A stretch of 48,975 nt of DNA from a virus (lineage: Duplodnaviria; Caudoviricetes): positions 1 to 48,975 of the IMG/VR virus record IMGVR_UViG_3300043540_000102; one strand, given 5' to 3'. This document shows positions 1 to 34,039 of this stretch, piece after piece. A program made the translations under genes and the position numbers. Position 1 is the first letter of the stretch, and every line of letters begins with the position of its first letter. The notes below the pieces were generated by a model. The model was given only the letters and a program-made list of their open reading frames with translations. It searched no databases and was not told where the DNA came from.

Positions 1-1029
1 GACGGGTACACCCTCCCGCTTGACGCTTTGGCGACTCAGCCCGGGGCGTGGTCAGTCCCCCCGGGGACGGTCAACCAATTCATCACATCAGTCCCGACCG
101 GGTACAATCTGACCGTGACCAACCCAGAACCGGGGACCCCGGAGAGCGAACCCGAGACAGAGACCGGCTTTCGCTCGCGGGTGCTGATGGCTGGTCTCGC
201 GGCCAGCACCGGCATGAGCCGCTACCTGAAGACCCTGCTGGGCAACGTCCCCGGGGTGCAGTCGCGTCTCATCTCGGTTCGCCAAGACTTGGTGGATGGG
301 AAGTGGGTGGTGATGGTCGGCGGCGGCGATCCTTATCAGGTGGCCTATGCGATCTATTATGCCCTGTTCGATGTGAACAATTTGGGTGCTCCCCTTATCC
401 GAATCGCAGGTATCACCAACAATAACCCGGCGGTGGTCACGACGGAATTCAACCACAACCTGACGACCGGAGATGTGAAGCTGATCCGCGACGTTCTTGG
501 GATGACCCAGATCAATAACGATGAATACCCCGTCACAGTGATGTCGCCGACCACTTTCAGTATCGGCGTGGATTCCACGGATTGGGGCGTATATACCGGC
601 GGCGGCACGGTCTCTCCGAACCCCATTGTGAACCCGGTTTCCATCGTTGATTATCCCGACACCTATGTAATCAACTACATCGTCCCCGTCCTTGAGCTGG
701 TCAATATCTCTGTGCAGTGGGCCACGGACTTTCCCAACTACGTCTCAGCGGCCTCTATCTCCAGCCTCGTCACCCCGGCGCTCGTTGACTACATCAACTC
801 TCTCGCTGCCGGGACGACCCCAATCAATATCTATGACATGACCGCGTTGTTCCTCGATACGGTGGCCCCGATCATTCCGTCCGAGAGCATCACATCACTC
901 AATTTTGCGGTGTCGGTGAACGGTATTGGCGTGGCTCCTCCCCCCGGGGGCGGCGTTATCTACGGGGACCCCAACAGTTATTTCTACACTGACTCCGCGC
1001 ATGTCCAAATCTTGGAAAGCACGCGATGA
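1..1029 (+). CDS. Baseplate J-like protein, 5'-truncated by the window
   Basis: Frame is open from base 1. Contains E-T-x-x-x-F-R-x-R-V and 'GGGDPYQVAYAIY' segments typical of baseplate J, with an internal FCCH-like beta domain. Lies upstream of wedge and fibre genes. Confidence 0.75.
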   Translation, partial: DGYTLPLDALATQPGAWSVPPGTVNQFITSVPTGYNLTVTNPEPGTPESEPETETGFRSRVLMAGLAASTGMSRYLKTLLGNVPGVQSRLISVRQDLVDGKWVVMVGGGDPYQVAYAIYYALFDVNNLGAPLIRIAGITNNNPAVVTTEFNHNLTTGDVKLIRDVLGMTQINNDEYPVTVMSPTTFSIGVDSTDWGVYTGGGTVSPNPIVNPVSIVDYPDTYVINYIVPVLELVNISVQWATDFPNYVSAASISSLVTPALVDYINSLAAGTTPINIYDMTALFLDTVAPIIPSESITSLNFAVSVNGIGVAPPPGGGVIYGDPNSYFYTDSAHVQILESTR

Positions 1030-1826
1030 CCAAGCAGGAAGGCCCGCCGCCGCCTATACTCTACAACGCCTCTCCGCTGGTGAGGAAGGTTGTGGCGTTC
1101 CCCCCGAAGGGGCCCACCGGGCGTCTCATCACGCTGCTGTCCTATCTCTATCAGGAATACAGCGACGACGAAGACCTGCAAGCCTTCGTGGACGCCCAGA
1201 ACCAATGGCAGCAGGATTTCACCGACACGTTCAACGGGCTCAACCTCCCCTATTATGTGTCGGCCCGCATCTCGGGGGAGCTACTGGATTGGGTTGGTGA
1301 AGGTCTTTACGGCTACCCCCGGCCCTATACCTCGGTTGGATTCTTTCACCGAATCGGCCCGTACAACACCTTCGCCTTTGAGACCTTGGAATACAACAGG
1401 CTGAAGAAAATCAGCTCCTCCAACAACGTTATCGGCGACGACGACACCTACAAGCGCTGTCTGACGTGGCATTTTTACAAAGGCGATGGAAAGTATTTCA
1501 ATGTCCGTTGGTTGAAGCGCCGGGTCTGGCGCTGGATTATCGGCGTCAACGGGGCGGCCCCGCCAATTCAGGACACCTACCGGGTTTCGATAACCTTTGG
1601 CACTAAGAATGAAGTGACGATTCGCATCGTCATGGGCCAGCGCAGGGTGACTGGCGGTGCGGTCTTCAACAAGATGGCCTTCAACAGCCGCAACCCGTTC
1701 AACTCGATAAAGTCGGCTTACGTGGCCTTCCCAGAAATCCCTCGGGCCGCTGATCTTGTCCAAGCCATCCAATCCGGTGTGCTGGAGCTTCCTTTCCAGT
1801 ACAAATTCAACGTCATCATCAACTGA
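1026..1826 (+). CDS. Baseplate wedge protein (DUF2612-like)
   Basis: 'LLDWVGEGLYGYPRP' and 'DDDTYKRCLTW' motifs; ATGA overlap with the baseplate J gene. Confidence 0.6.
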   Translation: MTKQEGPPPPILYNASPLVRKVVAFPPKGPTGRLITLLSYLYQEYSDDEDLQAFVDAQNQWQQDFTDTFNGLNLPYYVSARISGELLDWVGEGLYGYPRPYTSVGFFHRIGPYNTFAFETLEYNRLKKISSSNNVIGDDDTYKRCLTWHFYKGDGKYFNVRWLKRRVWRWIIGVNGAAPPIQDTYRVSITFGTKNEVTIRIVMGQRRVTGGAVFNKMAFNSRNPFNSIKSAYVAFPEIPRAADLVQAIQSGVLELPFQYKFNVIIN

Positions 1827-1836
1827 GGCCGCCGCC

Positions 1837-3273
1837 ATGAAATGTCTCTTCGCCAACCTCGCGCTCACCACTGTTTCCGGGGCCATCTCCCCGACCGATA
1901 CGACCGTGCAACTTGCGGCGGGCACAGGCAACGAATTCCCCAACCCGCTTAACGGCAGTGAGTATTTCGTGGCCACCTTCGTGGACCAATTGACCGGAAC
2001 GCAGAACGAAATCGTCTGGGTCACCCAGAGAGTCGGGGACACCTGCACCATCTCCCGGGCCAAGGAGAATACCTCGGCCAAGAGCTGGTCGGCGGGGGAC
2101 GAATTTTCGAACCTCCTCACCGCTGGCCAGATGGGCGTCATGCTGCAAAATGACGGCGCGGGCGCGTGGCCGATCAACGAGGAAAACATCATTTATATCG
2201 GCGAAGACACTGGCACTGTCAACAACATCATTTGCACGAGCTTGGACCCCATGCCGGGTGGCGGCTGGAAGCGGGGTATGACGTTTAATATCTTTGTCAA
2301 GAACACCAACCAAGGCCCCACCAACCTGACGCTGCCCGGCGGCTATACGGCTCCGGTTCAGCGCAACGATGGGTCTCCCTTGGTGGCTGGCGATTTAACG
2401 GCCAACGAGCCGGTGCAAGTGATTTTCACAGGGACCAGCTTTATCACTGGTATCCATAATATCGCGACGCCGCTGCCTCCGGGCACCCAGTTTTATATCC
2501 GCATGGATGGCAATGATAATAACCCAGGTCTTCAGGATTCGGCCGCCGGGGCCTTTGCTACGCCTTACGGGGCAATCACGGCGATTCAGAGCCGTCACAC
2601 GTCCAACGATGAAGTCATTGTCAACATCGGCGATGGCGTGTACTCTGGCGGCTTCGCAATCTTTGGTACCAAGATTGCATCCTGGCGTATCAGGGGCAAC
2701 AGCACGTCCCCTACCGCAGTGCAGATCGACGCCCGCACCAATCACAGCAATACGGGTGGGCGGGCGTTCAATATCAGCTCCGCACGTGTCACCATTGAGA
2801 ACATGAAGTGCTGGTCGTTTCAGGAGAATATCACCGTGGCCGGTTCGGGCATCGTGACCGCGAACAACATGAACACGACTTCACCGACCCAAGGGCCGTC
2901 GCTGCCTGTTACAGGCTGCTACAGCGGCACGTTGATGTTACAGGGGGAATGGACTTACGTCGGGGCTACTCAGGCTTATTGCTTCAATGTATCAGATGCT
3001 GCATCGACCCTTTTCGGCTACCACGACGCCACGACCAGCACTTCCTTCCACTGCACACTCTCCGGTAATTGCGATTGGGGGGGAGCCACAGTTATAGCCT
3101 CAAGCTGCGGCAAGATTAACGCCTACAACGGATATGTTAGTTGGTCTGGCGTCGTCCCGACGGCGTATCGGTTTGAGGCTGTCACCAATGGCGTCATCTT
3201 CGCTGGCGGCAACGTGAATCTGTTCCCCGGCTCTAAGCCCGGGGTTACGTCCACCGGCGGCCAGTACGTTTGA
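1837..3273 (+). CDS. Tail fibre/tail spike with a probable beta-helix C-terminal part
   Basis: ATG at 1837 follows GAGG. N-terminal baseplate anchor, then 'FYIRMDGNDNNPG..AFAT' and G/S/T/N-rich beta repeats. Confidence 0.7.
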   Translation: MKCLFANLALTTVSGAISPTDTTVQLAAGTGNEFPNPLNGSEYFVATFVDQLTGTQNEIVWVTQRVGDTCTISRAKENTSAKSWSAGDEFSNLLTAGQMGVMLQNDGAGAWPINEENIIYIGEDTGTVNNIICTSLDPMPGGGWKRGMTFNIFVKNTNQGPTNLTLPGGYTAPVQRNDGSPLVAGDLTANEPVQVIFTGTSFITGIHNIATPLPPGTQFYIRMDGNDNNPGLQDSAAGAFATPYGAITAIQSRHTSNDEVIVNIGDGVYSGGFAIFGTKIASWRIRGNSTSPTAVQIDARTNHSNTGGRAFNISSARVTIENMKCWSFQENITVAGSGIVTANNMNTTSPTQGPSLPVTGCYSGTLMLQGEWTYVGATQAYCFNVSDAASTLFGYHDATTSTSFHCTLSGNCDWGGATVIASSCGKINAYNGYVSWSGVVPTAYRFEAVTNGVIFAGGNVNLFPGSKPGVTSTGGQYV

Positions 3274-8958: not shown

Positions 8959-9687
8959 TTAAGCCCCGGGATTGGCGGTGGAGATGCGGCCCGCCTTGGC
9001 ATCCGCATCCAGCCAACCCAGGACCTTGAAGCGGAGGAGATTGGCCTTCAGCTCCGGATAGCGCTTTTCAGCCAGCTTGTAGGCGAGGGCGAACCACTCG
9101 GCGACCGTCTGGCCGTTCTGGTAGAGAGCGAACCGGGCTTCTGCCGCTGAATGACCTGCCGCGTCCTTGAGGACGGTGATGACGTTCTCATCCGCGTGCT
9201 TGCGGACGCCGACCAGCCACTGGCACTTGTCGGTGAACTTCTGGGCGTGCTGGGGCTTCGGGTGGTTCTTGAGCGAACCCTTCAACTCCACGACGCCTTC
9301 GGCGACCGGCGCGACTTCCTTGACCTTGGTAAGCTTGCCCTTCTTGAAGGGGATGACCTTTCCCCCGTCCAAGGCGATAGCCTCGAATTCGGTGACAGCC
9401 TTGGTCGTGGCGAGCCACTCGGCGACCTTCTTGGCCAGCTCGCGGATGCGCTTGCAGCCGGTGCCCTTGTCGGAGAAGCGATTGACTTCGGCCGGGACGC
9501 CTTCCACGTTGCGCTCGTTGAGAAAGCTGCGGAGGAGATTGAACACCTGGGGAAGCTCCTTGGGGACAAGGTTCTCCGGCATGAAATCGCCGGTCTCGCC
9601 GGAAACCCCGGAGGCGATGATGGTGAGGTTGGTGGACGCGCCCTTGATGGTCAGAGTGGTGACGGTGGTGTCAAGGGAGAGGAGCAT
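8959..9687 (-). CDS. Hypothetical Lys/Ala-rich early protein
   Basis: 242-aa ORF with an AAAAGGA RBS and its own promoter. Confidence 0.65.
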   Translation of the reverse strand: MLLSLDTTVTTLTIKGASTNLTIIASGVSGETGDFMPENLVPKELPQVFNLLRSFLNERNVEGVPAEVNRFSDKGTGCKRIRELAKKVAEWLATTKAVTEFEAIALDGGKVIPFKKGKLTKVKEVAPVAEGVVELKGSLKNHPKPQHAQKFTDKCQWLVGVRKHADENVITVLKDAAGHSAAEARFALYQNGQTVAEWFALAYKLAEKRYPELKANLLRFKVLGWLDADAKAGRISTANPGA

Positions 9688-9780: not shown

Positions 9781-11739
9781 CTAGATTATTTTCTCCTTGG
9801 CGTCGCCCCACGACGGCCCGCGCTCGATATCCACGCTCATTGGGATGGAAAGCGGGATGGCGTCCACCATCAGCTTCCCGCAGGCCCGGGCGTCGTCCGG
9901 ATTGTCGAAGGAGAAACCAAGCTCATCGTGGATTTGAATCATCGGGCAATAGCCTGCATCCCAGATATCCAGCATGGCGGTCTTCATCTGGCGGGCGGCG
10001 CTTCCCTGAACGAGATGGTTGAACGCCTTGTGGGTGTAGGCGCGGCGAATGTTGCCCTCGCCCCAAGTCTCGACTGCCGCCGCGTAGGGGCGAGCGGTCT
10101 GGCCTTTCTCAAAACAATCCTCTTCCCAAAGGTCATAATGGACCTTCGCCCCATCCAGCAGCCTCACATAACCCCGCTGAGACGCCCAAGTAGAGATGAC
10201 CTTGCTTGCCTGCGAGACAAAGGGCAGCTCGCGATCATATTGGGCCATGGTGGATTTCGCCTCGAACGGGCTCATGCCCGTCATGATCGCGAATTGGGCC
10301 ACACCGGCTCCGAACGCCTTGGCAAAGTTCACGTCCTTCGCGCGGCGGCGGATGAGCCGGGTGATCTCCACGACGTAGTTGTGAAAGTCGGTGGTCGGGT
10401 CCTCGCGATAGCGCCTGACGGCGATGTCCGCCCCTTCGATGTGGAGTCCCGGGGGGAGCTTGTCCGGCGGGAGCATCTGGAGGATATATGCCACGTGGAC
10501 GATGAGCCGGTATTCCTGTTGGCTGTAGTCGATGGCGTACCAGCTCCCAAATTCAGGGAGGAAGCACCGGCGGATGCGCGGGGCCAGCTCATCGTCGCGG
10601 GATGGCATCTGCTGTAGCGGCGGGTCCGAGTAGGAGAACCGATGCGACCTTGTGCCCCCGTTCTCACTTTTGAATTGGTTGATCGAGGCGTAAATGCGAC
10701 CGTGCTGGTTGTACCCGCGAATGTAGGTGCCGAGAAACTTGTTGGCGGCGTCGTCTATCTGCTTGGCCCGGGTAATGAGGCGGGGCAGCTGGGCGGGATG
10801 GTCCTTCATCCACGACGATTCGAATGATGGATTGCCGGCGGCTGTCCTTGGATAGTCGAGGCTCTGCGAATCGAAGATTTCCACCATCTTCTTGCCAGAA
10901 CGGAATTCCGACAGGCTGACAGGGCGGCCGAGGATATCCCTGATGGACGCAATGGTTGTGGTCAACTTGGAGTTGAATTCGATGATCGTCTGGTCAACCG
11001 CGTTCTCATCAATCCGGATGCCCCGGCGACGCATAGCCAGCGTCATCGGGATAAGGCGCATCTCCTTCAGGTAGGCGGCATAAACCCCTTCCTCGATCAC
11101 CCGGGGCAGCAGGGCATGATAGGCTGCGAGGGTCACAACCGCGTCGGTCTCGGCGTAGGGTCCGACGTATTGGGCCGGGAGCCGCCACATGTTCTCGGAG
11201 ACCTTGCCCTTGGGGATTCCCCGGTCAGCCGCCGCCTGATCCATCAGGCGCGTATCTTTCCCGGGAATTCCGATCCAGCGGCAAATTCCGTCCAAGCTGT
11301 ACGACAAGAGGCTTTCAGTGATAAAGACCGCGAGCGCTCCGGTGTCCCCGATATTCTTGGGTGGCTTGATCCCCCATTCCGTTTCGGTCCAACCCAGATC
11401 GTAGGAAATGTTGTGGCCTACAATGGTTGTGCCTTCTTGGGAGAATAACTCTCTCAAGAAGGCACCGACCCTTCCGTGATCCCAATTCGCCGTCTCGGGG
11501 TGATTGATGGGCAGGTAGATGGCCCCGCCTTCCCAAGCGAGCGAAACCCCGATCACGCAGCCCTTCCCGACGCACCAGCCGGGGCCTTTACCGTTCTGGA
11601 GCCCCTCATCCTTGGTCTCCAAGTCGAAGGCGACCACAGTGGCGTCACGAAGATTGGGCAGGTCAGTCGGGACCTTCCAACTGGATTCCGTAGGGAACAT
11701 CAGAACCTGCTTGGGTTGGGCGAAGAACTTGGATGCCAT
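9781..11739 (-). CDS. polA: DNA polymerase, family A, with 3'-5' exonuclease
   Basis: Exo motifs FDLET, GHNISYD and YAETD; motif A IDYSQQEYR; motif B RRAKDVNF; motif C QIHDEL. Start taken at MASKFF. Confidence 0.95.
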   Translation of the reverse strand: MASKFFAQPKQVLMFPTESSWKVPTDLPNLRDATVVAFDLETKDEGLQNGKGPGWCVGKGCVIGVSLAWEGGAIYLPINHPETANWDHGRVGAFLRELFSQEGTTIVGHNISYDLGWTETEWGIKPPKNIGDTGALAVFITESLLSYSLDGICRWIGIPGKDTRLMDQAAADRGIPKGKVSENMWRLPAQYVGPYAETDAVVTLAAYHALLPRVIEEGVYAAYLKEMRLIPMTLAMRRRGIRIDENAVDQTIIEFNSKLTTTIASIRDILGRPVSLSEFRSGKKMVEIFDSQSLDYPRTAAGNPSFESSWMKDHPAQLPRLITRAKQIDDAANKFLGTYIRGYNQHGRIYASINQFKSENGGTRSHRFSYSDPPLQQMPSRDDELAPRIRRCFLPEFGSWYAIDYSQQEYRLIVHVAYILQMLPPDKLPPGLHIEGADIAVRRYREDPTTDFHNYVVEITRLIRRRAKDVNFAKAFGAGVAQFAIMTGMSPFEAKSTMAQYDRELPFVSQASKVISTWASQRGYVRLLDGAKVHYDLWEEDCFEKGQTARPYAAAVETWGEGNIRRAYTHKAFNHLVQGSAARQMKTAMLDIWDAGYCPMIQIHDELGFSFDNPDDARACGKLMVDAIPLSIPMSVDIERGPSWGDAKEKII

Positions 11740-11741
11740 GG

Positions 11742-12089
11742 TTATTCCGTGTCTTTGGCGTAGTGGCCGCCGTCCTCGGGCGTCCCGGAGAGGTGGGGGG
11801 AGAAGAACAACCCCGGGGCGGGGGTGGGCTTCTTGCAGCGATCCGCCGCCAGCTTGGCATACCCGGCGATATCGTCCCAATGGTCCTGAATCTCCGGGTC
11901 ACCCACGAGAATCCGACCGATCTTGTGGGCGATCATGTGAAGCGACTCGCGCTTGGCCGGGTCAAGGACAGCCCAATTCTTGGACTCCTGACAAATGGCG
12001 AGGATTCCCGCGATGATGTTGGTCTGGTCGGTGTAGTCCCCATGAGTGGTCTCCCGGGCGGCGAGGATTGCCTTGATGTCTTGTCTCAC
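11742..12089 (-). CDS. DUF6378-like small helical protein, possibly nucleotide-pool related
   Basis: 'R-x-x-THGDY...MIAHKIGRI...DHWDDIAGYA' pattern; GTG start overlaps the HD gene stop. Confidence 0.65.
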   Translation of the reverse strand: MRQDIKAILAARETTHGDYTDQTNIIAGILAICQESKNWAVLDPAKRESLHMIAHKIGRILVGDPEIQDHWDDIAGYAKLAADRCKKPTPAPGLFFSPHLSGTPEDGGHYAKDTE

Positions 12090-12694
12090 TGGATGAATTC
12101 CTTGAACAGGTTGGTGAGGATTTCGGTCTGGCTGTGGTGGGCCAGCTCGATGGTAAGAGTGAGCCGCTTCGCAAGGTAGAGGTTCACCTGAACCCAAGCC
12201 GAGTCTGCCAGTTCCGTCTTGTATTCTTGGACCTTAAGCAGGCAGCGCTCGGCGACGATCCAGCCGTATTTGGAGCCGAGGAGCCACTCATGGAGCCCCT
12301 CCTCAGCCATCTCGATATATTCGCTGACCTTGATCTTCTTGGCCACGGAGGGCGCGGACGGGGGCGCGGCGGGGATATCCCAGTATTCGAGCAGGTTGTT
12401 GAGGGCGGTTTCCTCCAGACGATTGTGAGCAACCTTGAAGTCCTTGTCCCGGGCCTTCGACGGATAGGGTGCATCGCCCACGGCGATTTCCCCGCAGTCG
12501 TGAAACATGATAGCCTGCATCACATTCTTCTCCGGAACGCCGAAGATGCTGGTGTAAACCCGCAGGAGCTGCCACGTGTGTTCGGCGACCGATTGCCGGT
12601 GAAGCGTTGGCCAAGTGTGATAGCGTTCGACCTGACCCGCGAGCCGGAGATCAGATAGCACCAGATCGGCGGACGAATCGTCTTTCTTAAGCAT
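12086..12694 (-). CDS. HD-domain 5'-deoxynucleotidase (YfbR-like)
   Basis: 'V-x-RYH...QSVAEHTW...FHDCGE-x-x-x-GD-x-PYP-x-K'. Confidence 0.85.
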   Translation of the reverse strand: MLKKDDSSADLVLSDLRLAGQVERYHTWPTLHRQSVAEHTWQLLRVYTSIFGVPEKNVMQAIMFHDCGEIAVGDAPYPSKARDKDFKVAHNRLEETALNNLLEYWDIPAAPPSAPSVAKKIKVSEYIEMAEEGLHEWLLGSKYGWIVAERCLLKVQEYKTELADSAWVQVNLYLAKRLTLTIELAHHSQTEILTNLFKEFIQ

Positions 12695-13748
12695 GCTTCA
12701 CTTCCTTCTGTTTCAGCGCCCTATCGCGCCTATTAAACCATTCTTCGGCCGCCTGCTTCCAGTCCGGGGCGGTGACCCGATTCATGTGATATTCTCGACC
12801 CACCTTATTATGGGTCTTGTGCTCAGCGTAAGCCGCCGCGAGAGCGAATACTGTAGTCAAGAATGGGTTCCGAGTCGAGACAAAAATGTCGTTCTCGAAA
12901 AGCGGAGGGCCTTGGACGTGAAGCCGGTCCAACGCCTCCCAGAGCCGCGACAGGTCTTCATCGAAGGTGCTCGGATCACCGACCAGCGGCAGCATCTCAC
13001 CGTAGTTCATGTCCTGAGTGGAGAGGCTCAACGCGACCGTATCCGAGTGGGTGTAGTCGTCGGCTCCGATCCGCTCCTTTATCATCTCCCACACGTCCAT
13101 GTACATGTGATAGTCGTTCGACACCTGGGTGTATTCGCCCATCGGGACGCCGACCATGGATGCGATGTACTCCTGAAGGAGCGCGAAGTGGACCGCGTTG
13201 GCCCCGTAGGTTCCAAAAATGATGTCGTTGGAACGGTTGTACACCGTCATGTCGAGTCTGCCCAAGCGAATCCTGAAGACCGCGCAAAGGTTACACGGCT
13301 TTGCTATCTCCGGGGGCGTCGAGAAGTCTTCACTATCCCACATCTGTAGGACGGCCTGACGGGTGTTCGGGTCCACCTTGAGCTTGTCGATGATGTCCTG
13401 TATCTGGTCAACTTCGAAGTAGCTGCGCCAGCGGTAGCCGTAGGCGTCGGGGATGATCCCTGAAACCCCGTAGCGGGACGAAAAACCCTTAATGTACATG
13501 TCCAGAGGTCCCCCGTCCTCGCGCCCCTCCAACATCCACATCGCTTCGATAAGGTGGAAGAATGGGTTGGCGTCCCGGTAGGGATTCAGGAGGACATGTT
13601 GCTTGGGGTAGCGGTACACAGTCGCGACAGGCCCCGGATAGGTGATTACATCGCCGTTCCGGGACGGTTCCACCATGCCTTTGCGCAGAAGGAGGGCGAT
13701 GCCCCGGGGGAGGGCCTCGCGCACGTTCTTGACGGACAATCCAAACAT
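12687..13748 (-). CDS. Thymidylate synthase-fold dUMP hydroxymethylase-like protein
   Basis: AYG-x-RWR, TRQAVLQMWD, catalytic PCN, RSND...GANA (Asn indicates dUMP specificity) and H-x-Y motifs; long C-terminal extension; context of 5hmdU-modifying genes. Confidence 0.8.
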   Translation of the reverse strand: MFGLSVKNVREALPRGIALLLRKGMVEPSRNGDVITYPGPVATVYRYPKQHVLLNPYRDANPFFHLIEAMWMLEGREDGGPLDMYIKGFSSRYGVSGIIPDAYGYRWRSYFEVDQIQDIIDKLKVDPNTRQAVLQMWDSEDFSTPPEIAKPCNLCAVFRIRLGRLDMTVYNRSNDIIFGTYGANAVHFALLQEYIASMVGVPMGEYTQVSNDYHMYMDVWEMIKERIGADDYTHSDTVALSLSTQDMNYGEMLPLVGDPSTFDEDLSRLWEALDRLHVQGPPLFENDIFVSTRNPFLTTVFALAAAYAEHKTHNKVGREYHMNRVTAPDWKQAAEEWFNRRDRALKQKEVKHA

Positions 13749-14326
13749 TATCTCGACACTCCAAGTAGTTCGCACGACCTGTAGAAAGCTTCCTCACGGC
13801 CAAGGAATTCGACGGGGATTCCGTGCTTAAGGAGCTTCTCCGAGTTGCGGCGGATCGCTGTGACCTTATCGGTGATCAGGTCTGGGTTGACGGGCTCGAA
13901 AGGCTTCTGCAGCCTGATGGCCCGCTCCTTCCTCCGCTCGTTGACCGAGTACAGGCACGCCGCGAGCGGGGTGGACAGCTCGATGACATGGAGAGCCTGC
14001 CCGCTATCGGCGTGCAGCTTGGTCATCCGGTCAAAGCCGTACATCGACAACAGGACGCCTTCGAAGATGACGTGGTTGCCCATCCGGTGGAATTCGAGAA
14101 GGGTCTCGCAAATCCAGTCGGCGATGCCCTTTGCGGAGAAATTGTCACAACCTCCGGTTGGCGTTTCGTAGGGTCCAAAGACCACGACGGGGTAGGTCGT
14201 GCACTGATAGCCGATGACCTTGCAATCCGGATTTTTGATGGGGCGATACTGGCCACGGTGGGCCATGACCCGGCGGACAACGGTGGTCTTTCCGGCCCCG
14301 TTGGCTCCTCGAAGATTAAGCAGCAT
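13748..14326 (-). CDS. P-loop nucleotide kinase (candidate 5hmdUMP kinase)
   Basis: N-terminal Walker A RGANGAGKTT, GGCD, VIFEG and an R-x-x-x-R lid. Confidence 0.75.
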   Translation of the reverse strand: MLLNLRGANGAGKTTVVRRVMAHRGQYRPIKNPDCKVIGYQCTTYPVVVFGPYETPTGGCDNFSAKGIADWICETLLEFHRMGNHVIFEGVLLSMYGFDRMTKLHADSGQALHVIELSTPLAACLYSVNERRKERAIRLQKPFEPVNPDLITDKVTAIRRNSEKLLKHGIPVEFLGREEAFYRSCELLGVSR

Positions 14327-14432
14327 GCGATTCCCTCCAAGCCTTGATGGCTCCAACTAGCTCTTGAAACTTGTCCCCCAGAAATTCCCCATCTTTAGCC
14401 CAGACGTTGGGCCTGGGGATATTCCGCCTCAC

Positions 14433-15260
14433 TCATCTGACCTCCTCGGGCATCACCGATAGCATTCTCTCTGCCGTCTGCCCCCAACCATGGAGGTTGT
14501 GGCGGGTTTCCTTGATGTCCTTCCCAACCCAATAGCGTCCGTTGCGATAGGACTTGTATTTACACAGGACGGTTTCCGCTTCCTGCATGCTGCAGGCGCG
14601 ATGCCCCGAGGCGGGCTCGCGGAAGATCGACACGGACTTGATCAGCTGATCAAAGACCCAAGCTTTCGACGGCGGGGGCAGGGCTCCTTCCATATCCGCA
14701 AGGAGCAGGTCTAAGCACGCAGCGGGCTGAGCGTAAAGCGTCGTTTTCTCATCGAAGATGACGGTGTGGCCCCAGACGACTTCGAGCATGTCGGCGATCT
14801 TAAACCCGATCCAAGGACCAAACTGTGGCCAGCCCCGGGCGATGTCGATGACCTGAGCCGCCGTGACAGACGCCTCCAGATCACAAAACCACGCCATGAC
14901 CGGGCGGCGCGAGAAATGGTTGATGGCGTCCACGCATTTCTGGCCACGGAAGTGCCGCCGCTCAGCACCCCGGGGCCAACGCCCACCGTTCGGTGGGGGA
15001 GCGACGTTCCCGGCAGCTACAAGCATCCCCTTCCAATAATCCCTATCCTGGAATTCCGAGAGGTAGGACGCCACCCCAACGTCATAGAAGCACCAATAGG
15101 CGAACAGCCATCTGGAGAGCTGCGGAAAAGGGAGCTGAAGGTTGGTGAGCCCAACATAAACCGGGTCAAGGTCCTTGGTGTCGATCAGCTGGGCGGCGAA
15201 GTTGCCCACTGTGAGGTGTTGGGGAGAAAGATTGGGCTGGAGGAAGAGCGTCTGGCTCAT
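14433..15260 (-). CDS. Amino acid:DNA transferase (aGPT-Pplase2/ADDT family)
   Basis: DLDPVY, WLFAYWCFY, WPRG-x-ERRHFRG, FGPWIGFKIADM and QEAETVLCK motifs of the glycosylase-fold transferases of M6/PaMx11-type phages. Confidence 0.85.
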   Translation of the reverse strand: MSQTLFLQPNLSPQHLTVGNFAAQLIDTKDLDPVYVGLTNLQLPFPQLSRWLFAYWCFYDVGVASYLSEFQDRDYWKGMLVAAGNVAPPPNGGRWPRGAERRHFRGQKCVDAINHFSRRPVMAWFCDLEASVTAAQVIDIARGWPQFGPWIGFKIADMLEVVWGHTVIFDEKTTLYAQPAACLDLLLADMEGALPPPSKAWVFDQLIKSVSIFREPASGHRACSMQEAETVLCKYKSYRNGRYWVGKDIKETRHNLHGWGQTAERMLSVMPEEVR

Positions 15261-15300
15261 GGTCGTCCTTCTGGCGGGCCTATCCCCGCGTTCTGTATCG

Positions 15301-15329
15301 AATCTACCCGACCGCGCCCGGGGCGTAAA
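15301..15329 (-). promoter_or_regulatory. Sigma70-like promoter for the ADDT-to-polymerase operon
   Basis: TTTACG-17 bp-TAGATT. Confidence 0.5.
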
Positions 15330-15332
15330 GCG

Positions 15333-15363
15333 AAAAAGGCCGCCAAATGGCGACCTTCTTTTT
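15333..15363. terminator. Probable bidirectional terminator
   Basis: A5-AGGCCGCCA/TGGCGACCT stem with A and T tracts on the two sides. Confidence 0.55.
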
Positions 15364-15395
15364 GGTTGTATCCTTTTTCAAAAGGCAGCGACAAT

Positions 15396-15446
15396 TTGGC
15401 CGAGCGCTTTGATTGCAGCCATGCGAATTTCCTCATCTAAGTCCAG
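15396..15446. repeat. 51-bp direct repeat, copy 1
   Basis: 48/51 identical to 16542-16592. Confidence 0.95.
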
Positions 15447-15541
15447 GAGAATGGTGATGTTCTTGAGTCCAGGAGAATGGTGATGTTCTTGAGTCCAGGA
15501 GAATGGTGATGTTCTTGAGCCCAGGAGAATGGTGATGTTCT
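15440..15541. repeat. Tandem array, about 4 x 26 bp (AGTCCAGGAGAATGGTGATGTTCTTG)
   Basis: Units start at 15440, 15466, 15492 and 15518; the last is 24 bp with one mismatch. No spacers. Confidence 0.95.
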
Positions 15542-15582
15542 CCGGGTTGTGGCCCACCGCGACCAATACAGAAGTCAAGCCC

Positions 15583-15864
15583 CTAATCGAAGATTTTTCT
15601 CAGCTCCAACACATAGTCCTCCTGCAGCTCAACGGCAGTGATGTCTAAGGGGATTCGGTCCCGGTGGGAGAGAGCAATCAGAGGCTTCAGAAGGCTCCCA
15701 GTCCCTGCCGAAGGCTCCAGAATTCGAACCGGGCGGCCGAGGCGCTTGTGCGTCGCGACGATATCCGGCCAGATGGCTTCGGCGATCCGCTCCGCCGTTT
15801 CAGGCGGGGTGAAGAAGTCGCCGAAGGTCTTGGTCATGCGGCCTGTTTTGAGGTGAGTGGTCAT
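15583..15864 (-). CDS. SAM-dependent amino-methyltransferase, N-terminal (SAM-binding) half
   Basis: Motif X FFTP, motif I ILEPSAGTGSLL and motif II AVEL; ends before motifs III and IV. Confidence 0.8.
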   Translation of the reverse strand: MTTHLKTGRMTKTFGDFFTPPETAERIAEAIWPDIVATHKRLGRPVRILEPSAGTGSLLKPLIALSHRDRIPLDITAVELQEDYVLELRKIFD

Positions 15865-16568
15865 TTTTGATAATCCGGGTGGAGCTGGTTGAGAAACTTC
15901 TGGGCACCCGCGAGAGATAAAGCCGCAGTTCCGGCTTTCCTTCGCTTGTCGTCCTCCCTCATGATTTTGTTGTATAAGCTTATCGACTCAGGATGGTTCA
16001 ACTGATTTGCGATGCTCTGCAAAGTGGCAGCTCCTCCGGTGATGAGAATTTTGCCTGTGGTGTATGAACCATTTTCAATTATCTCCCGGCGAGATGTCAC
16101 CTGACCCCAAAGAGGTTGATTGCCCCCGAGCATCCTTCTATGTTGCGCGAGTATCAAGACGGGCTCATCCAGAGATTGGTTCAATTTCCAAGTTGCAATC
16201 TGGATGCCCCAAAGAGAATCCGGTACAGGCTCCCGGTTCACCCCCGGGAGGGCTTCGCTTGGACCGATAGACACCAAACCGCCTTTAGTCCCCCGGAGAC
16301 CAACAAATGAGATGTTGCCCAAGCTGGGCATGTATCCTGGGAATCGTTTTGCGTCATTATCGGGGAGCAAGAACAACAATCTCCCGTCAGCGGAAAGAAG
16401 CTTTTGCCCAGCCAACACAAATTTCTTCCAGAATACTGTACCTTTGCCATCACTCCACGGTGGGTTCCCAACTACAAAGTCAAACCGCTCCGCTCCGAAG
16501 TCGTGCGTTAGGAAGTCAGTGAGCTTGACGGTGAGGTTCAATTGGCCGAGCGCTTTGATTGTAGCCAT
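15861..16568 (-). CDS. SAM-dependent amino-methyltransferase, C-terminal (catalytic) half
   Basis: Motif III DFL, motif IV FDFVVGNPPW and LL-x-x-DGRLLFLLP. Likely start is the ATG at 16568 after GAGGA; a TTG at 16598 is the alternative. Lower GC than the flanks. Confidence 0.8.
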   Translation of the reverse strand: MATIKALGQLNLTVKLTDFLTHDFGAERFDFVVGNPPWSDGKGTVFWKKFVLAGQKLLSADGRLLFLLPDNDAKRFPGYMPSLGNISFVGLRGTKGGLVSIGPSEALPGVNREPVPDSLWGIQIATWKLNQSLDEPVLILAQHRRMLGGNQPLWGQVTSRREIIENGSYTTGKILITGGAATLQSIANQLNHPESISLYNKIMREDDKRRKAGTAALSLAGAQKFLNQLHPDYQK

Positions 16569-16592
16569 GCGAATTTCCTCATCTGGGTCCAG
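16542..16592. repeat. 51-bp direct repeat, copy 2
   Basis: Contains the RBS and first codons (MATIKALGQ) of the catalytic MTase half. Confidence 0.95.
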
Positions 16593-16601
16593 AAACAAGA
16601 C

Positions 16602-17408
16602 CTATTTTCCACGCAGGATCGCGGCGACCCGAAGTGCGGCATAGGCCGCGCCAACCGTCCCGCTCTTGGCCCCGCCGGTGGCGAGGATCGCCCGGCCGTT
16701 CTCCGCCACGAGGCAGGGGGCGGTCGTGACAGCGTAGGGGCGTGCGCCGAGGGTCGGCTGCAGGTCGGTGGCCCCACTCTTCGCCGAGCAGCGCGCCTGC
16801 GACACCGCGAGCCGCTCCGGGGTGATCGACTTCGGGATCAGTGCCGTACCGTCTCCGATCCAGCTGCGGCCGTCGCTCATGTTGAAGGCGACCACCTGCC
16901 GGTAGGGGGCCCATGTGTCGATAACCGGGTTGGGAATCGGTGACCCCCGGAAGGACCAACCGAGCTTCGCAGACACATCGCACGAATAAAGCTCCGGGGA
17001 CCAGATGCCAGCCGCCACGACGATTCGCTTGGCAGTGTAGTCGCCGACTGAGCCGCTTGCCACCACGCGGTCAGGGTACTGGCGGACATCGCTGATGTGG
17101 TCGTTGATGTGCGGCCCCCCGAGAATATCCCCCGGTTCGATGCGTCCGCAAGTCGTCTTGAAGCCGGAAGGGTGGATGGTGAATTCGACAGTGTGGACCT
17201 GATAATACAGCTTGAGAAGGTCCATGCACGGATCGAGGCTACCCCCGAAGTTGGTCAGCCACGACGGCTTGATCACACACCCGGCGGCGCGCGACCCAGC
17301 GGTGGGCTCCTTGTTGTCGATCACGAGCACGCTGTACCCGAGGGCGGTCAGGTGTCGGGCGATCACAGAGCCGAACAGCCCTGCGCCGATAACGATCACG
17401 TCAATCAT
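16602..17408 (-). CDS. FAD-dependent oxidoreductase (DAO/glycine oxidase-like; candidate flavin lyase of DNA hypermodification)
   Basis: VIVIGAGLFG Rossmann motif, GS-x-AAG, VVAAGIWS, GARPY and ATGG-x-K-x-G; start MIDV with an AAGGA RBS. Confidence 0.85.
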   Translation of the reverse strand: MIDVIVIGAGLFGSVIARHLTALGYSVLVIDNKEPTAGSRAAGCVIKPSWLTNFGGSLDPCMDLLKLYYQVHTVEFTIHPSGFKTTCGRIEPGDILGGPHINDHISDVRQYPDRVVASGSVGDYTAKRIVVAAGIWSPELYSCDVSAKLGWSFRGSPIPNPVIDTWAPYRQVVAFNMSDGRSWIGDGTALIPKSITPERLAVSQARCSAKSGATDLQPTLGARPYAVTTAPCLVAENGRAILATGGAKSGTVGAAYAALRVAAILRGK

Positions 17409-17536: not shown

Positions 17537-17803
17537 TCAGGACTGCTGGGTGGGGAGGGTGTGGACGGCGGAGGCGATGGACTGCGCGACCAGCGCCCGC
17601 TCGATGATCTTCTGGTTGGTGGTCTGGCCGACAAGTGCCCAGATGAAGCAACCGATCCATCCAGCACCCGACCAGCCGATGAGAAAATTGATGAGGGCAA
17701 CCCCGGCGGCGTTGTCGTGGCCACGGCCCGCGGCGATGACGGCGGGGAGGAAGTAGAAGAAAATGAAGGTGGCGATGAGGATGAATGCGACGAGAGAGGC
17801 CAT
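17537..17803 (-). CDS. imm: Superinfection immunity protein (T4 Imm-like)
   Basis: 'YFLP-x-x-IA-x-x-R-x-H-x-N...IN-x-x-x-GW...GWI-x-x-x-IWA' pattern. Confidence 0.85.
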   Translation of the reverse strand: MASLVAFILIATFIFFYFLPAVIAAGRGHDNAAGVALINFLIGWSGAGWIGCFIWALVGQTTNQKIIERALVAQSIASAVHTLPTQQS

Positions 17804-17852
17804 GAGAGCGTTCCTTTTTCCGGAGCGGCCCAATCGCCGTTCCAATACAAAG

Positions 17853-17881
17853 GTTCTACCGGAGCCCAATACAGAAGTCAA
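17853..17881 (-). promoter_or_regulatory. Sigma70-like early promoter
   Basis: TTGACT-17 bp-TAGAAC. Confidence 0.6.
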
Positions 17882-17925
17882 GTGGGTTTCGAAAAATAAT
17901 TTCGCCCCCAACCCCGCTTCTTAAT

Positions 17926-26086: not shown

Positions 26087-26968
26087 ATGCCCCCGCTACA
26101 GCATGAGTTTGTCCCTGAGCAGCTAAAGCTCTTCACCCAATTCATCATCGAGCGTGAGAACGTGCGCCTGCTCCGGGAGACCGGGGCTCAACCGCCGTGG
26201 ACCAGCGACCCGATCCTCAGAGCCTTTCGCTTCACGAACATTCGCCGTGAGGACGACTACGTGACGCGGTGGTATGCGAACAACTGGCGCACGCCCCACG
26301 CCGACGACCCTGATGCTTGGTTCGCGTCCTACGTCTGCCGCGTCGTGAACGAACCCGCTACACTGGAGCGGCTCGGCTACCCTGTGCCATGGGATGAGAA
26401 ACGCTTCCTCGCCACTCTCGGGCAGCCTAATCCCGGCGGTGAGCCGCTCTATCGCGCCGCCTATATGATCCGCTCCACGTCCGAGTTCAAGGGTCAGAGC
26501 AAGGCGGCCTATCTCGCAGCGATGCAGTTGACCCCGGCATGGGAGAAGAGAAGCTGGGTGCGCCCGGTCTTGGGCGACAGCCTGCAGAGCTTCTACACGC
26601 GCCTGACCTCATTGTACGGCTTGGGGAGCTTCCTATCGGCGCAGATCGTGGCCGATGTCAAGTTCATTAGGCCATTGTGCGATGCCCCGGACTGGAAGAG
26701 CTTCGCCGCAAGCGGCCCGGGGAGCCGCCGGGGGTTGAACCTTCTCCGTGGGTTTCCCATGGACGCAGCGTGGTCCGAAGATGAGTGGCGCTTGTCCCTG
26801 AATCGCCTGATCGAGGCGGTGGCCCCAACCCTACTGGCCCAGAGCATCGACCTCTCGGCGCAGGACCTACAAAATTGCTTGTGCGAAGTGTCAAAATGGC
26901 TGAAGGCCCGCAACGGGACCGGACGCCCGAAACAGAAGTATATCCCCGCCCATGGAGGAGTGGCCTGA
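26087..26968 (+). CDS. 5-hmdU DNA kinase (aGPT-Pplase1/HMUDK helical family)
   Basis: ER...PWT-x-DPIL-x-x-FRFTNIRREDD, G-x-G-x-FL-x-x-QIVAD, GPGS-x-RGL and QNCLCE-x-x-K motifs. Confidence 0.88.
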   Translation: MPPLQHEFVPEQLKLFTQFIIERENVRLLRETGAQPPWTSDPILRAFRFTNIRREDDYVTRWYANNWRTPHADDPDAWFASYVCRVVNEPATLERLGYPVPWDEKRFLATLGQPNPGGEPLYRAAYMIRSTSEFKGQSKAAYLAAMQLTPAWEKRSWVRPVLGDSLQSFYTRLTSLYGLGSFLSAQIVADVKFIRPLCDAPDWKSFAASGPGSRRGLNLLRGFPMDAAWSEDEWRLSLNRLIEAVAPTLLAQSIDLSAQDLQNCLCEVSKWLKARNGTGRPKQKYIPAHGGVA

Positions 26969-27648: not shown

Positions 27649-29181
27649 GTGACGGACGTAAACTACGCGGGCGATTTCGCCCCGAGCATCCACCAGCAGA
27701 TGATGGCGCGGCGCATGTGTGCCTCGCCGATCCATGCCCTCACCGCCGAGATGGGCTGCGGGAAGTCGCGGCCCCTCCTGCGCGCGTGGCTCTGGCGCGA
27801 CGCCAATCAGCAGCTGGCGACCGGGGAGAACGTGGACCTTGTCCTGCTCGCCCCCAAAGGCTGCTATTTGAACTGGCTGACGATGCCAACAAAGCTCGCC
27901 ATCGAGCCCGAGCTGGGGGAGCTTGAACGGTGGCTCACACACGATGAATTCCGCTCCACCGAGTGGTGTTGGTGGGGGCCGACCTCGAAGGGCCACCAAC
28001 AGAAGCTCGATGCCCTCCTGAGGGTGACGCAGCGGCGGCGGTTCCTCACAATGAACATCGAGGCTCTCAATCGCCCGGGGAAGGCCCGCGACTATCTGTT
28101 GGCATTCATGAAGGACCGGCACGTGTTCGTGGCGGTGGACGAGAGCACGTGCATCATGCATCACGACTCGGGGCGCACCAAGTGGGTGCTGGAGGAGGTC
28201 AAGCCTCGCGCCGACTACCGGGTGATCATGTCTGGTCTGATCTCGCCCGAGAGCCCGGAGAACCTGTTTAGCCAATACAAGTTCCTTGACAGCCGCATCC
28301 TCGGCGAGCACTACATCAATTTCCGCGCCAAGTACGCAATCACCCGGAAAATCAACTTCACACCAGCCGCCCAGCGCACGAAGGAGAAGCCCGGGCGGGC
28401 GGCGACCGTGATTGTAGGGTGGCGCGACGGGGTGCTTGAAGAGCTTCGGGAGAAGACAGCGCCCTACACATCGCGGGTACTGCTGGAGGACGTGGCCGAT
28501 ATCCCACGCTCGTACAGTTACTACGATGTGGGCCTGACCGATCAACAGGCAGACCTGTACGAGCGGCTCAAGAAGCAGGCGACAGCGGCTCTGGACGCGA
28601 TGACCCGCGTCACGGCGACCAACGCCGCGCATCAGCTCGCCCTGCTTCACCACATCATCTGCGGACACGTCAAGGCGGAGGACGGGACGATTCACGACGT
28701 ACCGTCCAATCGCATTGACAGCCTGATGGAGGTTATTGGCGACCAGAGCGGCAAGGCGATCATCTTCGCCCCCTACCCGCGAGCGCTGGAGAAGATCACC
28801 GACGCGATCCGCACCGCCTACGGCGAGGCAAGCTGCGTGACCTATTGGGGCGCGACCTCGGACCGGGAGCGCGGCGAGGCCCGGACCCGCATCCAGAAGG
28901 ACCCTGACACGCGGTTCATCGTCTCCAACCAGAGCGTCGGGGGCAAGGGCGGCACGTGGACGGCGGCGCGGCTGGTGTTGTTCTTCGCCAACAGCTGGGA
29001 TCAGGAAGACAGGCAACAGTCAGAGTTTCGTGCGCGGAGGCTCGGGCAGACCGGGCACGTCCACTTCGTGGACTTTCGGGCGCGGAACACCGTGGAGGAA
29101 CGCCTGATTTCGGTGCTCAAGGCCAAAAGGTCCATGAGCGCCGAGCTGGCAGGGGATAGGTGGAGGGCCTGGTTGGAATGA
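27649..29181 (+). CDS. SNF2-like SF2 helicase
   Basis: EMGCGKS, VDEST, MSG and QSE-x-RA-x-R-x-GQ motifs. Confidence 0.9.
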   Translation: MTDVNYAGDFAPSIHQQMMARRMCASPIHALTAEMGCGKSRPLLRAWLWRDANQQLATGENVDLVLLAPKGCYLNWLTMPTKLAIEPELGELERWLTHDEFRSTEWCWWGPTSKGHQQKLDALLRVTQRRRFLTMNIEALNRPGKARDYLLAFMKDRHVFVAVDESTCIMHHDSGRTKWVLEEVKPRADYRVIMSGLISPESPENLFSQYKFLDSRILGEHYINFRAKYAITRKINFTPAAQRTKEKPGRAATVIVGWRDGVLEELREKTAPYTSRVLLEDVADIPRSYSYYDVGLTDQQADLYERLKKQATAALDAMTRVTATNAAHQLALLHHIICGHVKAEDGTIHDVPSNRIDSLMEVIGDQSGKAIIFAPYPRALEKITDAIRTAYGEASCVTYWGATSDRERGEARTRIQKDPDTRFIVSNQSVGGKGGTWTAARLVLFFANSWDQEDRQQSEFRARRLGQTGHVHFVDFRARNTVEERLISVLKAKRSMSAELAGDRWRAWLE

Positions 29182-29663
29182 GCGCTAACAATCCAGGTAT
29201 CTGGAAGCTCCCGGGGGCGACCGATCTGCTCAAAAAGCTGATCGCCGAGGGGGCGACATACCAGAAAATCTCTGAGGTCCTCGCCGAGCGGTTCAAGCTC
29301 CCGGTCTCACGCAACGCTGTCATTGGCTATTCGGCGCGCAATAGGCTCAAGCTGCTCTGCGACCCGATGCCGCCGACTGTTGCGAAGGTCCTCAAGCCTG
29401 GGGTCGTGCCCCCGGAGCCGGAGAAGATCGAGCCCCCACCGGCCATCCCGGGGGTTGCGTTCGATGATCTGCCCTATAACGGTTGTCGCTGGGAGATATC
29501 CGGCTTTCGCGTCAAGGCCCGGGACATGATGTTCTGCGGGGAGCCGAAGGTGCCGGGTCGGCCCTATTGCCCCTATCACGTCGGCAAGGCATATACGGCC
29601 CCCAACCCACGAGCTGTGGGGAGACAACGGACTTGGGTTGTGCCTAAGAAAAAAGTTATGTGA
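29178..29663 (+). CDS. gcrA: GcrA-like transcription regulator
   Basis: N-terminal HTH 'SRNAVIG' and C-terminal CRW...FCG...PYC-x-x-H-x-x-x-AY. Confidence 0.88.
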   Translation: MSANNPGIWKLPGATDLLKKLIAEGATYQKISEVLAERFKLPVSRNAVIGYSARNRLKLLCDPMPPTVAKVLKPGVVPPEPEKIEPPPAIPGVAFDDLPYNGCRWEISGFRVKARDMMFCGEPKVPGRPYCPYHVGKAYTAPNPRAVGRQRTWVVPKKKVM

Positions 29664-30956: not shown

Positions 30957-31343
30957 TTGGAAATGAACACCGGAGCAACCACCAAAAAGCGAGGCCCGGC
31001 CACAATGGCCAGTGAAGAGGCTCGCCGTCGCATCGCGATCCGCTGGGCACGCCCCGGCGCGCGTGAAGAGCAGTCGATTGCGGTCAAGGCCCGTCTCGCG
31101 GCCAAAGCCGAAGCCGAGGCCAAGGCAGAGCGCGCTGCCAAGCGTCTCGCCAAGAAGCTGGAGAGAGAGCAGGCCGCAAAAAAGTCGGAACCGAAGGCCA
31201 AGCGGATCAAGCCCCCAAAGGCTGTGAAGCCCGCCAAGGCCATTCCGTCGTTCAAGCTCGCCGGCAAGATCGCCGACAAGGTCAAGGCCAACCGGAAGGT
31301 CGCCCGGGAGAACGCCCGGAAGTCGCGCGCCGCAGCGGAGTGA
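30957..31343 (+). CDS. Lys/Ala-rich basic (histone-like) protein
   Basis: Amino acid composition; GGAG RBS (ATG at 30963 is the likely start). Confidence 0.6.
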   Translation: MEMNTGATTKKRGPATMASEEARRRIAIRWARPGAREEQSIAVKARLAAKAEAEAKAERAAKRLAKKLEREQAAKKSEPKAKRIKPPKAVKPAKAIPSFKLAGKIADKVKANRKVARENARKSRAAAE

Positions 31344-31939
31344 CAGAGGGCACCTACGGCGTCATTTATGCAGACCCACCGTGGGACTACGTGACGTATA
31401 GCGCGAAGGGCAGTGGGCGGTCACCGAGCGCGCACTACGACACGATGAGGCCGGAGGAGCTTGCAGCTCTCCCGGTCTCCTCGCTCGCAGCAAAGAACTG
31501 CGTACTCATGATGTGGACGACGGACACTCATCTTGAACAGGCGCTCGCCTTGATCAAGGCTTGGGGCTTCATCTACAAGACCGTGGGCTTTTACTGGGTC
31601 AAGCTGAACAAGTCGGGTGAAGGCTACTTCCTTGGCCTTGGTCATTGGACCCGATCCAACCCTGAGATGTGCCTCCTGGCGACCCGGGGGAAACCGAAAC
31701 GCAATAGTGCGTCCGTGAGAAAGCTCTTGGTCTCCTCCCTCCAGGAGCATTCCCGGAAGCCTGATGAGGCCCGCCGCCGGATTGAAATGCTGGTTGGCGG
31801 GCCTTACTGCGAGCTGTTTGCACGCGAGGCTGCCCCGGGGTGGAGCGTGGCCTATAGCAATCAGGCTGGCCTCTTCGACAACGGCCCGGTCCGCACCCGC
31901 CGCCGACCCTACCGGGGGCTGAAGTATGAGGAAAGTTGA
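31340..31939 (+). CDS. MT-A70 family adenine methyltransferase
   Basis: IYADPPW, HYDTM, WGF-x-YKT, HSRKP and ELFAR motifs. Confidence 0.92.
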   Translation: MTEGTYGVIYADPPWDYVTYSAKGSGRSPSAHYDTMRPEELAALPVSSLAAKNCVLMMWTTDTHLEQALALIKAWGFIYKTVGFYWVKLNKSGEGYFLGLGHWTRSNPEMCLLATRGKPKRNSASVRKLLVSSLQEHSRKPDEARRRIEMLVGGPYCELFAREAAPGWSVAYSNQAGLFDNGPVRTRRRPYRGLKYEES

Positions 31940-33730: not shown

Positions 33731-34039
33731 ATGGCTGGCGATGACGACGACGATGACCTGTACGTTGACTTGGGGCTCGAAGATGACGCCTCACCGCTCG
33801 AATTCCTCATGGCGGTGTATCGGTCCAACATTGTCCCCATCAATCTCCGTGTGGACGCGGCCAAGAACGCCGCAATGTACGTCCATCCCAAGCTGATCGC
33901 GGTCGCAGCGGTCAAGACGGGGCAGGAAAAACTCATGCTCTCCGGCGGTCTCCCCAATCTCCCCGGGGCCAATGTCGTCATGCCCAAGGCCAAGGTTCAG
34001 ATTGAGGGCGAGGTCGCCAAGAAAGACCATGACAAATGA
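33731..34039 (+). CDS. terS: Terminase small subunit
   Basis: PLEFL-x-x-V...R-x-DAAK-x-AA-x-YVHPKL; ATGA overlap with terL. Confidence 0.75.
   Translation: MAGDDDDDDLYVDLGLEDDASPLEFLMAVYRSNIVPINLRVDAAKNAAMYVHPKLIAVAAVKTGQEKLMLSGGLPNLPGANVVMPKAKVQIEGEVAKKDHDK

Follow-up and report, generated by a model that had tools for sequence, protein, structure and literature searches.

The virus record IMGVR_UViG_3300043540_000102 (Caudoviricetes) is a linear record made up of a single contig of 48,975 nt, all of which was analysed here (the window). It carries a thymidine hypermodification gene cluster at 11742-17408. With moderate confidence, we propose that the final DNA base of this phage is 5-aminomethyl-2'-deoxyuridine (5-NmdU), made by the route of phage PaMx11 without the acetyl cap, and that two methyltransferase halves within the cluster are an inserted, rearranged DNA adenine methylase that does not belong to the route. 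In the PaMx11 pathway to 5-acetylaminomethyl-2'-deoxyuridine (5-AcNmdU), gp49 is the 5-hydroxymethyluridine DNA kinase (5-HMUDK), gp46 the glycine:DNA transferase (PUGT), gp47 the flavin lyase (N-alpha-glycinylthymine oxidase, NGTO) and gp48 the acetyltransferase, according to two papers (PMC8989533, PMC11472151). The route as far as 5-NmdU is well supported by orthology, given the residues shared with gp46 and gp47 and the product of gp47 in vitro.

The route to 5-NmdU

All pathway steps were assigned by orthology to enzymes shown in vitro. A thymidylate synthase homologue would produce 5-hydroxymethyl-dUMP, the product of polA would incorporate 5-hydroxymethyldeoxyuridine (5-hmdU) into DNA, and a P-loop kinase would phosphorylate the base there. 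The transferase, through Cys233, would exchange the phosphate for glycine. Cleavage of the N-C-alpha bond by the flavin enzyme would then release glyoxylate and leave a primary amine, and this base, 5-NmdU, would block restriction enzymes. The cluster genes and polA form one contiguous block of minus-strand genes, and family profiles confirmed every gene that the first-pass annotation had listed there. The profile families that it had named were also matched (Thymidylat_synt E 3e-24, DAO-type E 1.5e-12, and the PF18723 family at 26087).

The synthase-family enzyme (12687..13748) is a predicted dUMP hydroxymethylase orthologous to M6 gp58 and PaMx11 gp51 (37% identity to gp51, E 4e-68). Its catalytic PCN aligns with phages M6 and PaMx11, as does an Asn motif that we take to be of the dU type. 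An inactive cluster, or a synthase homologue that makes dTMP, would leave canonical T in the DNA; we give this very little credence. It is consistent with the comparison of the window with PaMx11, in which a dCMP deaminase was not found (a point that also counts against our proposal), and sequence does not prove hydroxymethylase over methylase activity. However, the four core genes are intact and have their catalytic residues, and the synthase belongs with gp58 and gp51.

The P-loop gene (13748..14338) matches HMUDK_HMUD1 (E 4e-6; its 26.9 bits fall just short of the cut-off of 27), PaMx11 gp49 (35% identity, E 2e-23) and M6 gp54 (E 7e-9). The 5-HMUDK had initially been placed at 26087. The protein encoded there (26087..26968, plus strand, away from the cluster) is a helical PF18723 protein and the orthologue of M6 gp55 (E 7e-32) and PaMx11 gp50 (31% identity). 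Table 1 of Lee et al. gives the P-loop proteins M6 gp54 and PaMx11 gp49 as 5-HMUDK, and gp55 was dispensable in their in vitro reaction (PMC8989533, available portion). Judged by orthology, the protein at 26087 is not the kinase, despite the word 'kinase' within its Pfam name, and the pathway kinase is the P-loop gene within the cluster.

The amino acid:DNA transferase (14433..15260; ADDT E 1.3e-9, PDB 8z2m E 2e-54) is 40% identical to PaMx11 gp46. Of the gp46 residues described in the structure paper (PMC11472151), 15/18 are identical, the exceptions being R141, F173 and D175. All ten aligned pocket positions match M6 and PaMx11 (D32, E100, W150, K154, E229, T230, C233, K234, Y243 and D248), and the marks of a glycine transferase were found: the catalytic Cys, the metal-binding E/T and pocket residues D24, E96, K159, K248, Y257 and D262. 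K248 and Y257 were sufficient for converting a diamine enzyme to glycine as donor (PMC13458397, as far as available), and this phage's transferase retains both of these determinants. It is thus predicted to be glycine-specific.

The flavin-dependent lyase (16602..17408) is the orthologue of PaMx11 gp47 (34% identity, E 1e-40; PDB 8z79, 8z2o). Ten of the 13 DNA- and base-binding residues of gp47 are kept, including W51, Y180, Q182, R242, Y244 and K268, but not F52, K202 and N205. The gene is full length, has a phage-typical GC content at third codon positions (GC3, 0.82) and its own ribosome-binding site and upstream genes. In vitro, gp47 alone converted N-alpha-glycinylthymine (315 u) to 5-NmdU (257 u), which gp48 acetylated to a product of 299 u; the DNA of PaMx11 itself was not amenable to analysis in that study (Lee et al., PMC8989533). 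The tRNA enzyme MnmC1 is homologous to gp47.

The remaining genes of the block, also on the minus strand, are a family A DNA polymerase (9781..11742; probable ATG at 11742, Pfam DNA_pol_A and exo, 29% to PaMx11 gp55), a DUF6378-like small protein (11742..12089; PF19905 E 1.5e-6) and an HD-domain nucleotidase (12086..12694; YfbR-like HD E 9e-8) related to PaMx11 gp52 and M6 gp59. The DUF6378 frame is open to 12197; its probable GTG start at 12089 is placed by the overlap with the HD stop.

Capping genes in the window and in related loci

As the first-pass annotation had reported, no GNAT, pyridoxal phosphate (PLP) or radical S-adenosylmethionine (SAM) gene was found in a six-frame search of the 49 kb. 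Profiles built from related loci (three GNAT groups, amidoligase, low-molecular-weight (LMW) phosphatase, radical SAM, Nmad5 and beta-class methylase) gave a best E of 0.13 in the window with hmmsearch --max. The amidoligase profile (49 sequences) and the LMW phosphatase profile (35 sequences) reached 0.37 and 0.32. The M6 radical SAM isomerase gp53 had no match in the window and the PLP decarboxylase gp52 a best E of 0.31, PF00583 returned 0 candidates there, and the upstream-type GNAT of the relatives described below had no match either. A gp48-type GNAT was likewise unmatched in these 49 kb of a genome that is 71% complete by CheckV. Since the GNAT is missing from the available sequence, the phage is, on gene content, PaMx11-like up to 5-NmdU and outside the 5-AcNmdU pathway proper. 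Because the GNAT, PLP and radical SAM tailoring genes are missing from the sequence, its final base probably differs from 5-AcNmdU, 5-aminoethyldeoxyuridine (5-NedU) and 5-aminoethoxymethyldeoxyuridine (5-NeOmdU). To this extent the earlier suggestion of a new final base stands; the likeliest product, however, is a known intermediate, 5-NmdU.

Related loci were fetched with a profile of 82 lyase homologues from three collections (of 332 and of 103 confirmed stretches, the best 80 each were retained). We examined 165 loci, of which 152 gave a lyase match at E 1e-8, 107 remained distinct at the 90% identity level and 59 came with full context. A cluster-type GNAT was found in 25/59 (two also with an amidoligase, one also with a methylase 2.6 kb away), and an Amidoligase_2-like gene without a GNAT in 22/59, three of these with a radical SAM gene; the Amidoligase_2-like Pfam matches, at E 9e-6 to 4e-5, are below the cut-off for the domain. 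The other 12/59 had neither. Another GNAT lies 4-5 kb upstream in five of these 12, and this upstream GNAT also occurs in loci already equipped with one of the cluster type. Whole-record searches with PF00583 were blank in six of the seven remaining loci (Sonora, L044, L050, L055, L056 and L063, with L055 and L063 incomplete); L144 was left out. Twenty cultured-phage records contain the lyase: a gp48 homologue accompanies it in 17, phage Simon has an amidoligase, and Sonora and RHph_TM26 have neither. The same capping-gene searches were also blank in three near-complete IMG/VR genomes (96, 98 and 100%).

The uncapped gene set is therefore not unique to the window, as it is also present in cultured Sonora and RHph_TM26. 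The enzyme set had been called non-standard. This holds in that the window has no cap gene, but its core is the PaMx11 pathway minus the last gene, and the two cultured phages share it. Because they have the same gene set, Sonora and RHph_TM26 are cultured phages in which the uncapped state can be checked.

A FastTree phylogeny of 110 lyases placed the window within a clade of support 0.968. The two closest lyase sequences have no readable context, and single-protein searches of IMG/VR with the lyase and its three closest sequences returned no relative; hence this arrangement could not be followed in any close genome. The simplest reading of these sequence comparisons is that the lineage lost an amidoligase and ends at 5-NmdU.

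Several points weigh against our proposal. A GNAT or amidoligase is present in 47/59 full-context loci, and the upstream GNAT noted above accompanies five of the 12 that have neither. The five nearest clade members with context all carry an amidoligase, which makes capping the norm in this lyase clade. In the window, the two methylase halves found there are complementary, translationally coupled, probably share a transcript with the lyase and were modelled as one fold. A capping gene could be missing because the contig is incomplete (CheckV 71%), and a host GNAT or an open reading frame (ORF) that went unrecognised could cap the amine.

The points on capping bear on the first of the rival readings, in which a GNAT or amidoligase from the unsequenced part of the genome, from such an ORF or from the host caps the amine to give 5-AcNmdU or an amide-linked base. 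In this genome the helical gene was already relocated from the cluster, which is consistent with a capping gene lying elsewhere. We nevertheless regard a capped base as unlikely. The head and tail genes resemble those of Pantoea phage PdC23 (major capsid protein 59%, with the baseplate wedge also matched), and both ends of the contig are in tail genes: the right end inside the homologue of the sheath-like PdC23 gp12, at residue 222, and the left end in that of the baseplate gene gp21, at residue 138. The syntenic gap relative to PdC23 comprises about 7 kb of tail genes, with more missing sequence implied by CheckV. Further, the six frames of the window gave no profile match, and complete genomes without a capping gene exist.

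If the final base is indeed 5-NmdU, a free 5-aminomethyl group would be a native phage DNA base, beyond its role as an in vitro intermediate. The comparison of loci presents 5-NmdU as a branch point that is capped by GNATs, by amidoligases or by nothing. Our literature search returned no report of 5-NmdU as a final virion base, although Figure 2 of Lee et al. (PMC8989533, available in part) may show clusters without a GNAT. The papers found to name 5-NmdU treat it within the PaMx11 route.

Other variants of the cluster were seen among the related loci. In L060 (10822-11496) and L104 (1218-1904), the position immediately behind the lyase, which the GNAT usually occupies, is taken by related beta-class N6/N4-type methylases that are 41% identical and have an SPPY motif. 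The two loci are from distant lyase clades, a GNAT was not found in the L060 record (24% complete), and a search for this methylase family returned only the contigs themselves (n=2). They are candidate 5-NmdU N-methyltransferases. In L029, an FkbM-family methyltransferase (12239-12943) follows the kinase and precedes the helical gene, where relatives have a GNAT; a search for its relatives returned only its own contig. L098 (1550-2722) and L123 (9370-10320) have open frames that combine part of the lyase with a GNAT domain, through fusion or frameshift. A TET/JBP dioxygenase replaces the hydroxymethylase in the lyase clusters of L041 and L061; in L041, amidoligase and radical SAM genes are present as well.

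The methyltransferase cassette

A split SAM methyltransferase had been counted among the cluster's enzymes in the first pass. Two halves are present, but they are probably an unrelated rearranged insertion, absent from the 165 related loci. On the minus strand, the catalytic half A (15861..16568; motifs III-IV, NPPW, onward; Eco57I-like, weak Pfam MTS and Eco57I matches) comes first and the SAM-binding half B (15583..15864; motifs X, I and II; M.BseCI E 0.013) second. This reverses the order in the profile, since the halves match consecutive parts of phrog_9133 (B 730-789, A 791-856). The stop of A and the start of B overlap by ATGA, and A lies in frame behind the TAG of the flavin adenine dinucleotide (FAD) gene. 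For both halves the best matches, weak throughout, are to DNA adenine methylases of the gamma class, Eco57I-like and others. The motifs of a gamma-class N6-adenine methylase were found, with X-I-II in B and III-IV (NPPY/W) in A, in two ORFs of reversed order and not in the single chain X-I-II-III-IV...target-recognition domain. Residues 95-235 of half A match unnamed clusters only. If the pair is active, its target is likely to be adenine.

The 1146 nt of the cassette are bracketed by a 51-nt direct repeat (family D2; copies at 15396..15446 and 16542..16592, 94% identical). Beside the downstream copy is a 26-nt tandem array (15440..15541; 3.9 copies, 98% matches), which lies within a 66-codon stub (15378-15578). 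Neither the repeat nor the array had been mentioned in the first pass. The stub reads as an upstream part of the half A gene, in the same frame across the repeat. GC3 is 0.57 in half A, 0.73 in half B, whose codon usage is phage-like, and 0.63-0.85 in 26 other genes. Because the value for A falls below that of B and of the other genes, the two halves probably derive from different genes. We infer that the cassette is an unstable insertion that arose by duplication or by integration of a circle. A permutation-by-duplication model is cited in PMC5944983, and our cassette would be a minor illustration of methyltransferases being rearranged between direct repeats.

The cassette was not found elsewhere. 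Half A is a singleton in the protein database, with no homologue of similar length, and half B had no homologue among longer proteins, which is weak evidence. A tblastn of A, B or the stub against the 165 related loci gave no match at E 0.01, so linkage to the flavin lyase was not seen to be conserved among genomes. In the five nearest FAD-lyase relatives with context, no methylase lies between lyase and transferase, which is consistent with an insertion. A 31-nt stretch of the cassette had no exact match in IMG/VR. A wider permuted methylase family may exist. A minor contig (392 nt, depth 3.9 vs 10.4) of the metagenome run X1, described below, shares 15537-15566 and then diverges into sequence absent from the window; it is a candidate for a variant allele, or for a related element, at this place in the cassette.

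Three other interpretations of the cassette were set aside. An assembly frameshift splitting one methylase is unsupported, as both the lyase/A and the A/B junction are covered, free of indels, by a 3305-nt contig of run X1 (possibly the source sample); the contig does not resolve the tandem copy number. A read-through fusion of lyase and methylase at the TAG would be without motif I, and the in-frame match has a 1 in 3 chance. A HEAT-repeat match of the 51-nt repeat (Pfam E 0.004) is below the cut-off, and the same stretch aligns with the helix after motif II of a phage methylase, for which reason the reading was dropped.

Modelled together with SAM in ESMFold2, A and B scored 0.87 vs 0.12 for the best control, with contact agreement of at least 68% and a predicted local distance difference test value (pLDDT) of at least 74 for B and about 45 for A. 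The ESMFold2 mark was reached by 51/78 solved and 2/108 mismatched pairs. The result speaks for fold complementarity only, because halves of split genes pass by their likeness to solved folds. On this model, the methylase pair may still be functional.

A further reading takes the halves to be a heterodimeric amino-methyltransferase that converts 5-NmdU to 5-methylaminomethyl-dU and would reproduce in DNA the tRNA route to mnm5U by MnmC1 and MnmC2. In that route, MnmC2 methylates the amine that arises in the MnmC1 step. The complementary halves, their ATGA overlap and their position directly behind the lyase would fit this chemistry, as would the ESMFold2 score (with its limit for split genes) and the other methyltransferases that occupy the capping position in L060, L104 and L029. 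The split between motifs II and III was complemented in M.MpeI but failed in M.SssI, both of them C5 methylases (PMC5944983, available portion). We consider an amino-methyltransferase highly improbable because the window enzyme is outside the L060/L104 family. It differs in class from those enzymes, its best matches are DNA adenine methylases, no homologue was found near the 165 related loci, the codon usage of half A is foreign, and the cassette is repeat-bracketed and variable. A literature search on methylaminomethyl in phage DNA hypermodification returned nothing relevant. If the amino-methyltransferase reading were true, the beta-class methylases of L060 and L104 would be intact versions of the same chemistry.

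In the gap between the cassette and the transferase, there is a terminator-like hairpin with a T-run (15333..15363, minus strand; -21.4 kcal/mol, z -3.46). One of 200 shuffles was equally stable and the hairpin is absent from the consensus scan list. A weak sigma-70-like promoter candidate before the transferase (15301..15329, minus strand) was found by eye, with 8/12 matches and a 17-nt spacer, and is under the scan threshold. The consensus scan for promoters and terminators in the window gave no excess over shuffles. The hairpin would separate the lyase/methylase unit from the transferase operon, and together with the rearranged cassette, the displaced helical gene and the missing amidoligase of the clade it might suggest that the cluster is decaying. 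Separated from the rest by the insertion and the terminator, the lyase would then have little activity, and the DNA would contain mainly N-alpha-glycinylthymine or a mixture. Such decay appears improbable, as the lyase is full length with 10/13 key residues, the GC3 of the phage, a ribosome-binding site of its own and upstream genes.

Genome setting and comparison with known systems

The PdC23/Chronis-like myovirus structural module (33731-48975 and 1-3273) is joined to a DNA metabolism module like those of M6 and PaMx11. An IS605 TnpB-like gene (32442-33641, plus strand) has the replication and packaging modules on either side. The head module encodes an 878-aa protein (38915-41551, plus strand) with a NUDIX domain at its N terminus and an ADP-ribosyltransferase domain at its C terminus; it may be an enzyme delivered by the virion. 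Other genes encode an MT-A70 adenine methyltransferase (31340-31939, plus strand), a superinfection immunity protein upstream of the lyase (17537-17911, minus strand) and a GcrA-like regulator (29160-29663, plus strand), the last of which hints at an alphaproteobacterial host. Beyond polA, a gene at 8959-9687 (minus strand) weakly matches (E 2e-5) the PaMx11 gp45-like family, members of which precede the transferase in many related loci. The only run found to contain the DNA is a hot-spring metagenome (run X1), which may be the source sample; no RNA data set containing it was listed.

Compared with PaMx11, the phage has orthologues of gp46 (40%), gp47 (34%), gp49 (35%), gp50 (31%), gp51 (37%), gp52 and polA, with catalytic residues kept. 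Unlike PaMx11, it has no gp48 GNAT and no detected dCMP deaminase, its lyase is upstream of the transferase with the methylase cassette and hairpin between them, its helical gene is about 9 kb off on the other strand, and its structural genes are of the PdC23-related myovirus type. The M6 pathway to 5-NedU is represented by orthologues of gp51, gp54, gp55, gp58 and gp59, but matches to gp52, the PLP decarboxylase, and to gp53, the radical SAM isomerase, are lacking. The methylase halves share motifs X, I and II (B) and III and IV (NPPW, A) with gamma-class N6-adenine methyltransferases such as Eco57I-like enzymes and M.BseCI, and differ from them in their two ORFs, permuted order, differing codon usage and bracketing direct repeat; a target-recognition domain after motif VIII was not identified, with residues 95-235 of half A matching unnamed clusters.

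The lyase + Amidoligase_2-like clusters of L005, L007, L014, L083, L163 and phage Simon belong to the nearest FAD-lyase clade. They also have the lyase upstream of the transferase and kinase, but carry an amidoligase after the kinase and often an LMW phosphatase. Stenotrophomonas phage Sonora (MZ326860) and Rhizobium phage RHph_TM26 (MN988465) likewise encode a kinase, a glycine-type transferase and a flavin lyase, with no GNAT or amidoligase match in their complete records. A literature search found no report on the DNA chemistry of Sonora; RHph_TM26 was not searched by name. Both differ from our phage in having no methylase cassette and in keeping the helical gene within the cluster.

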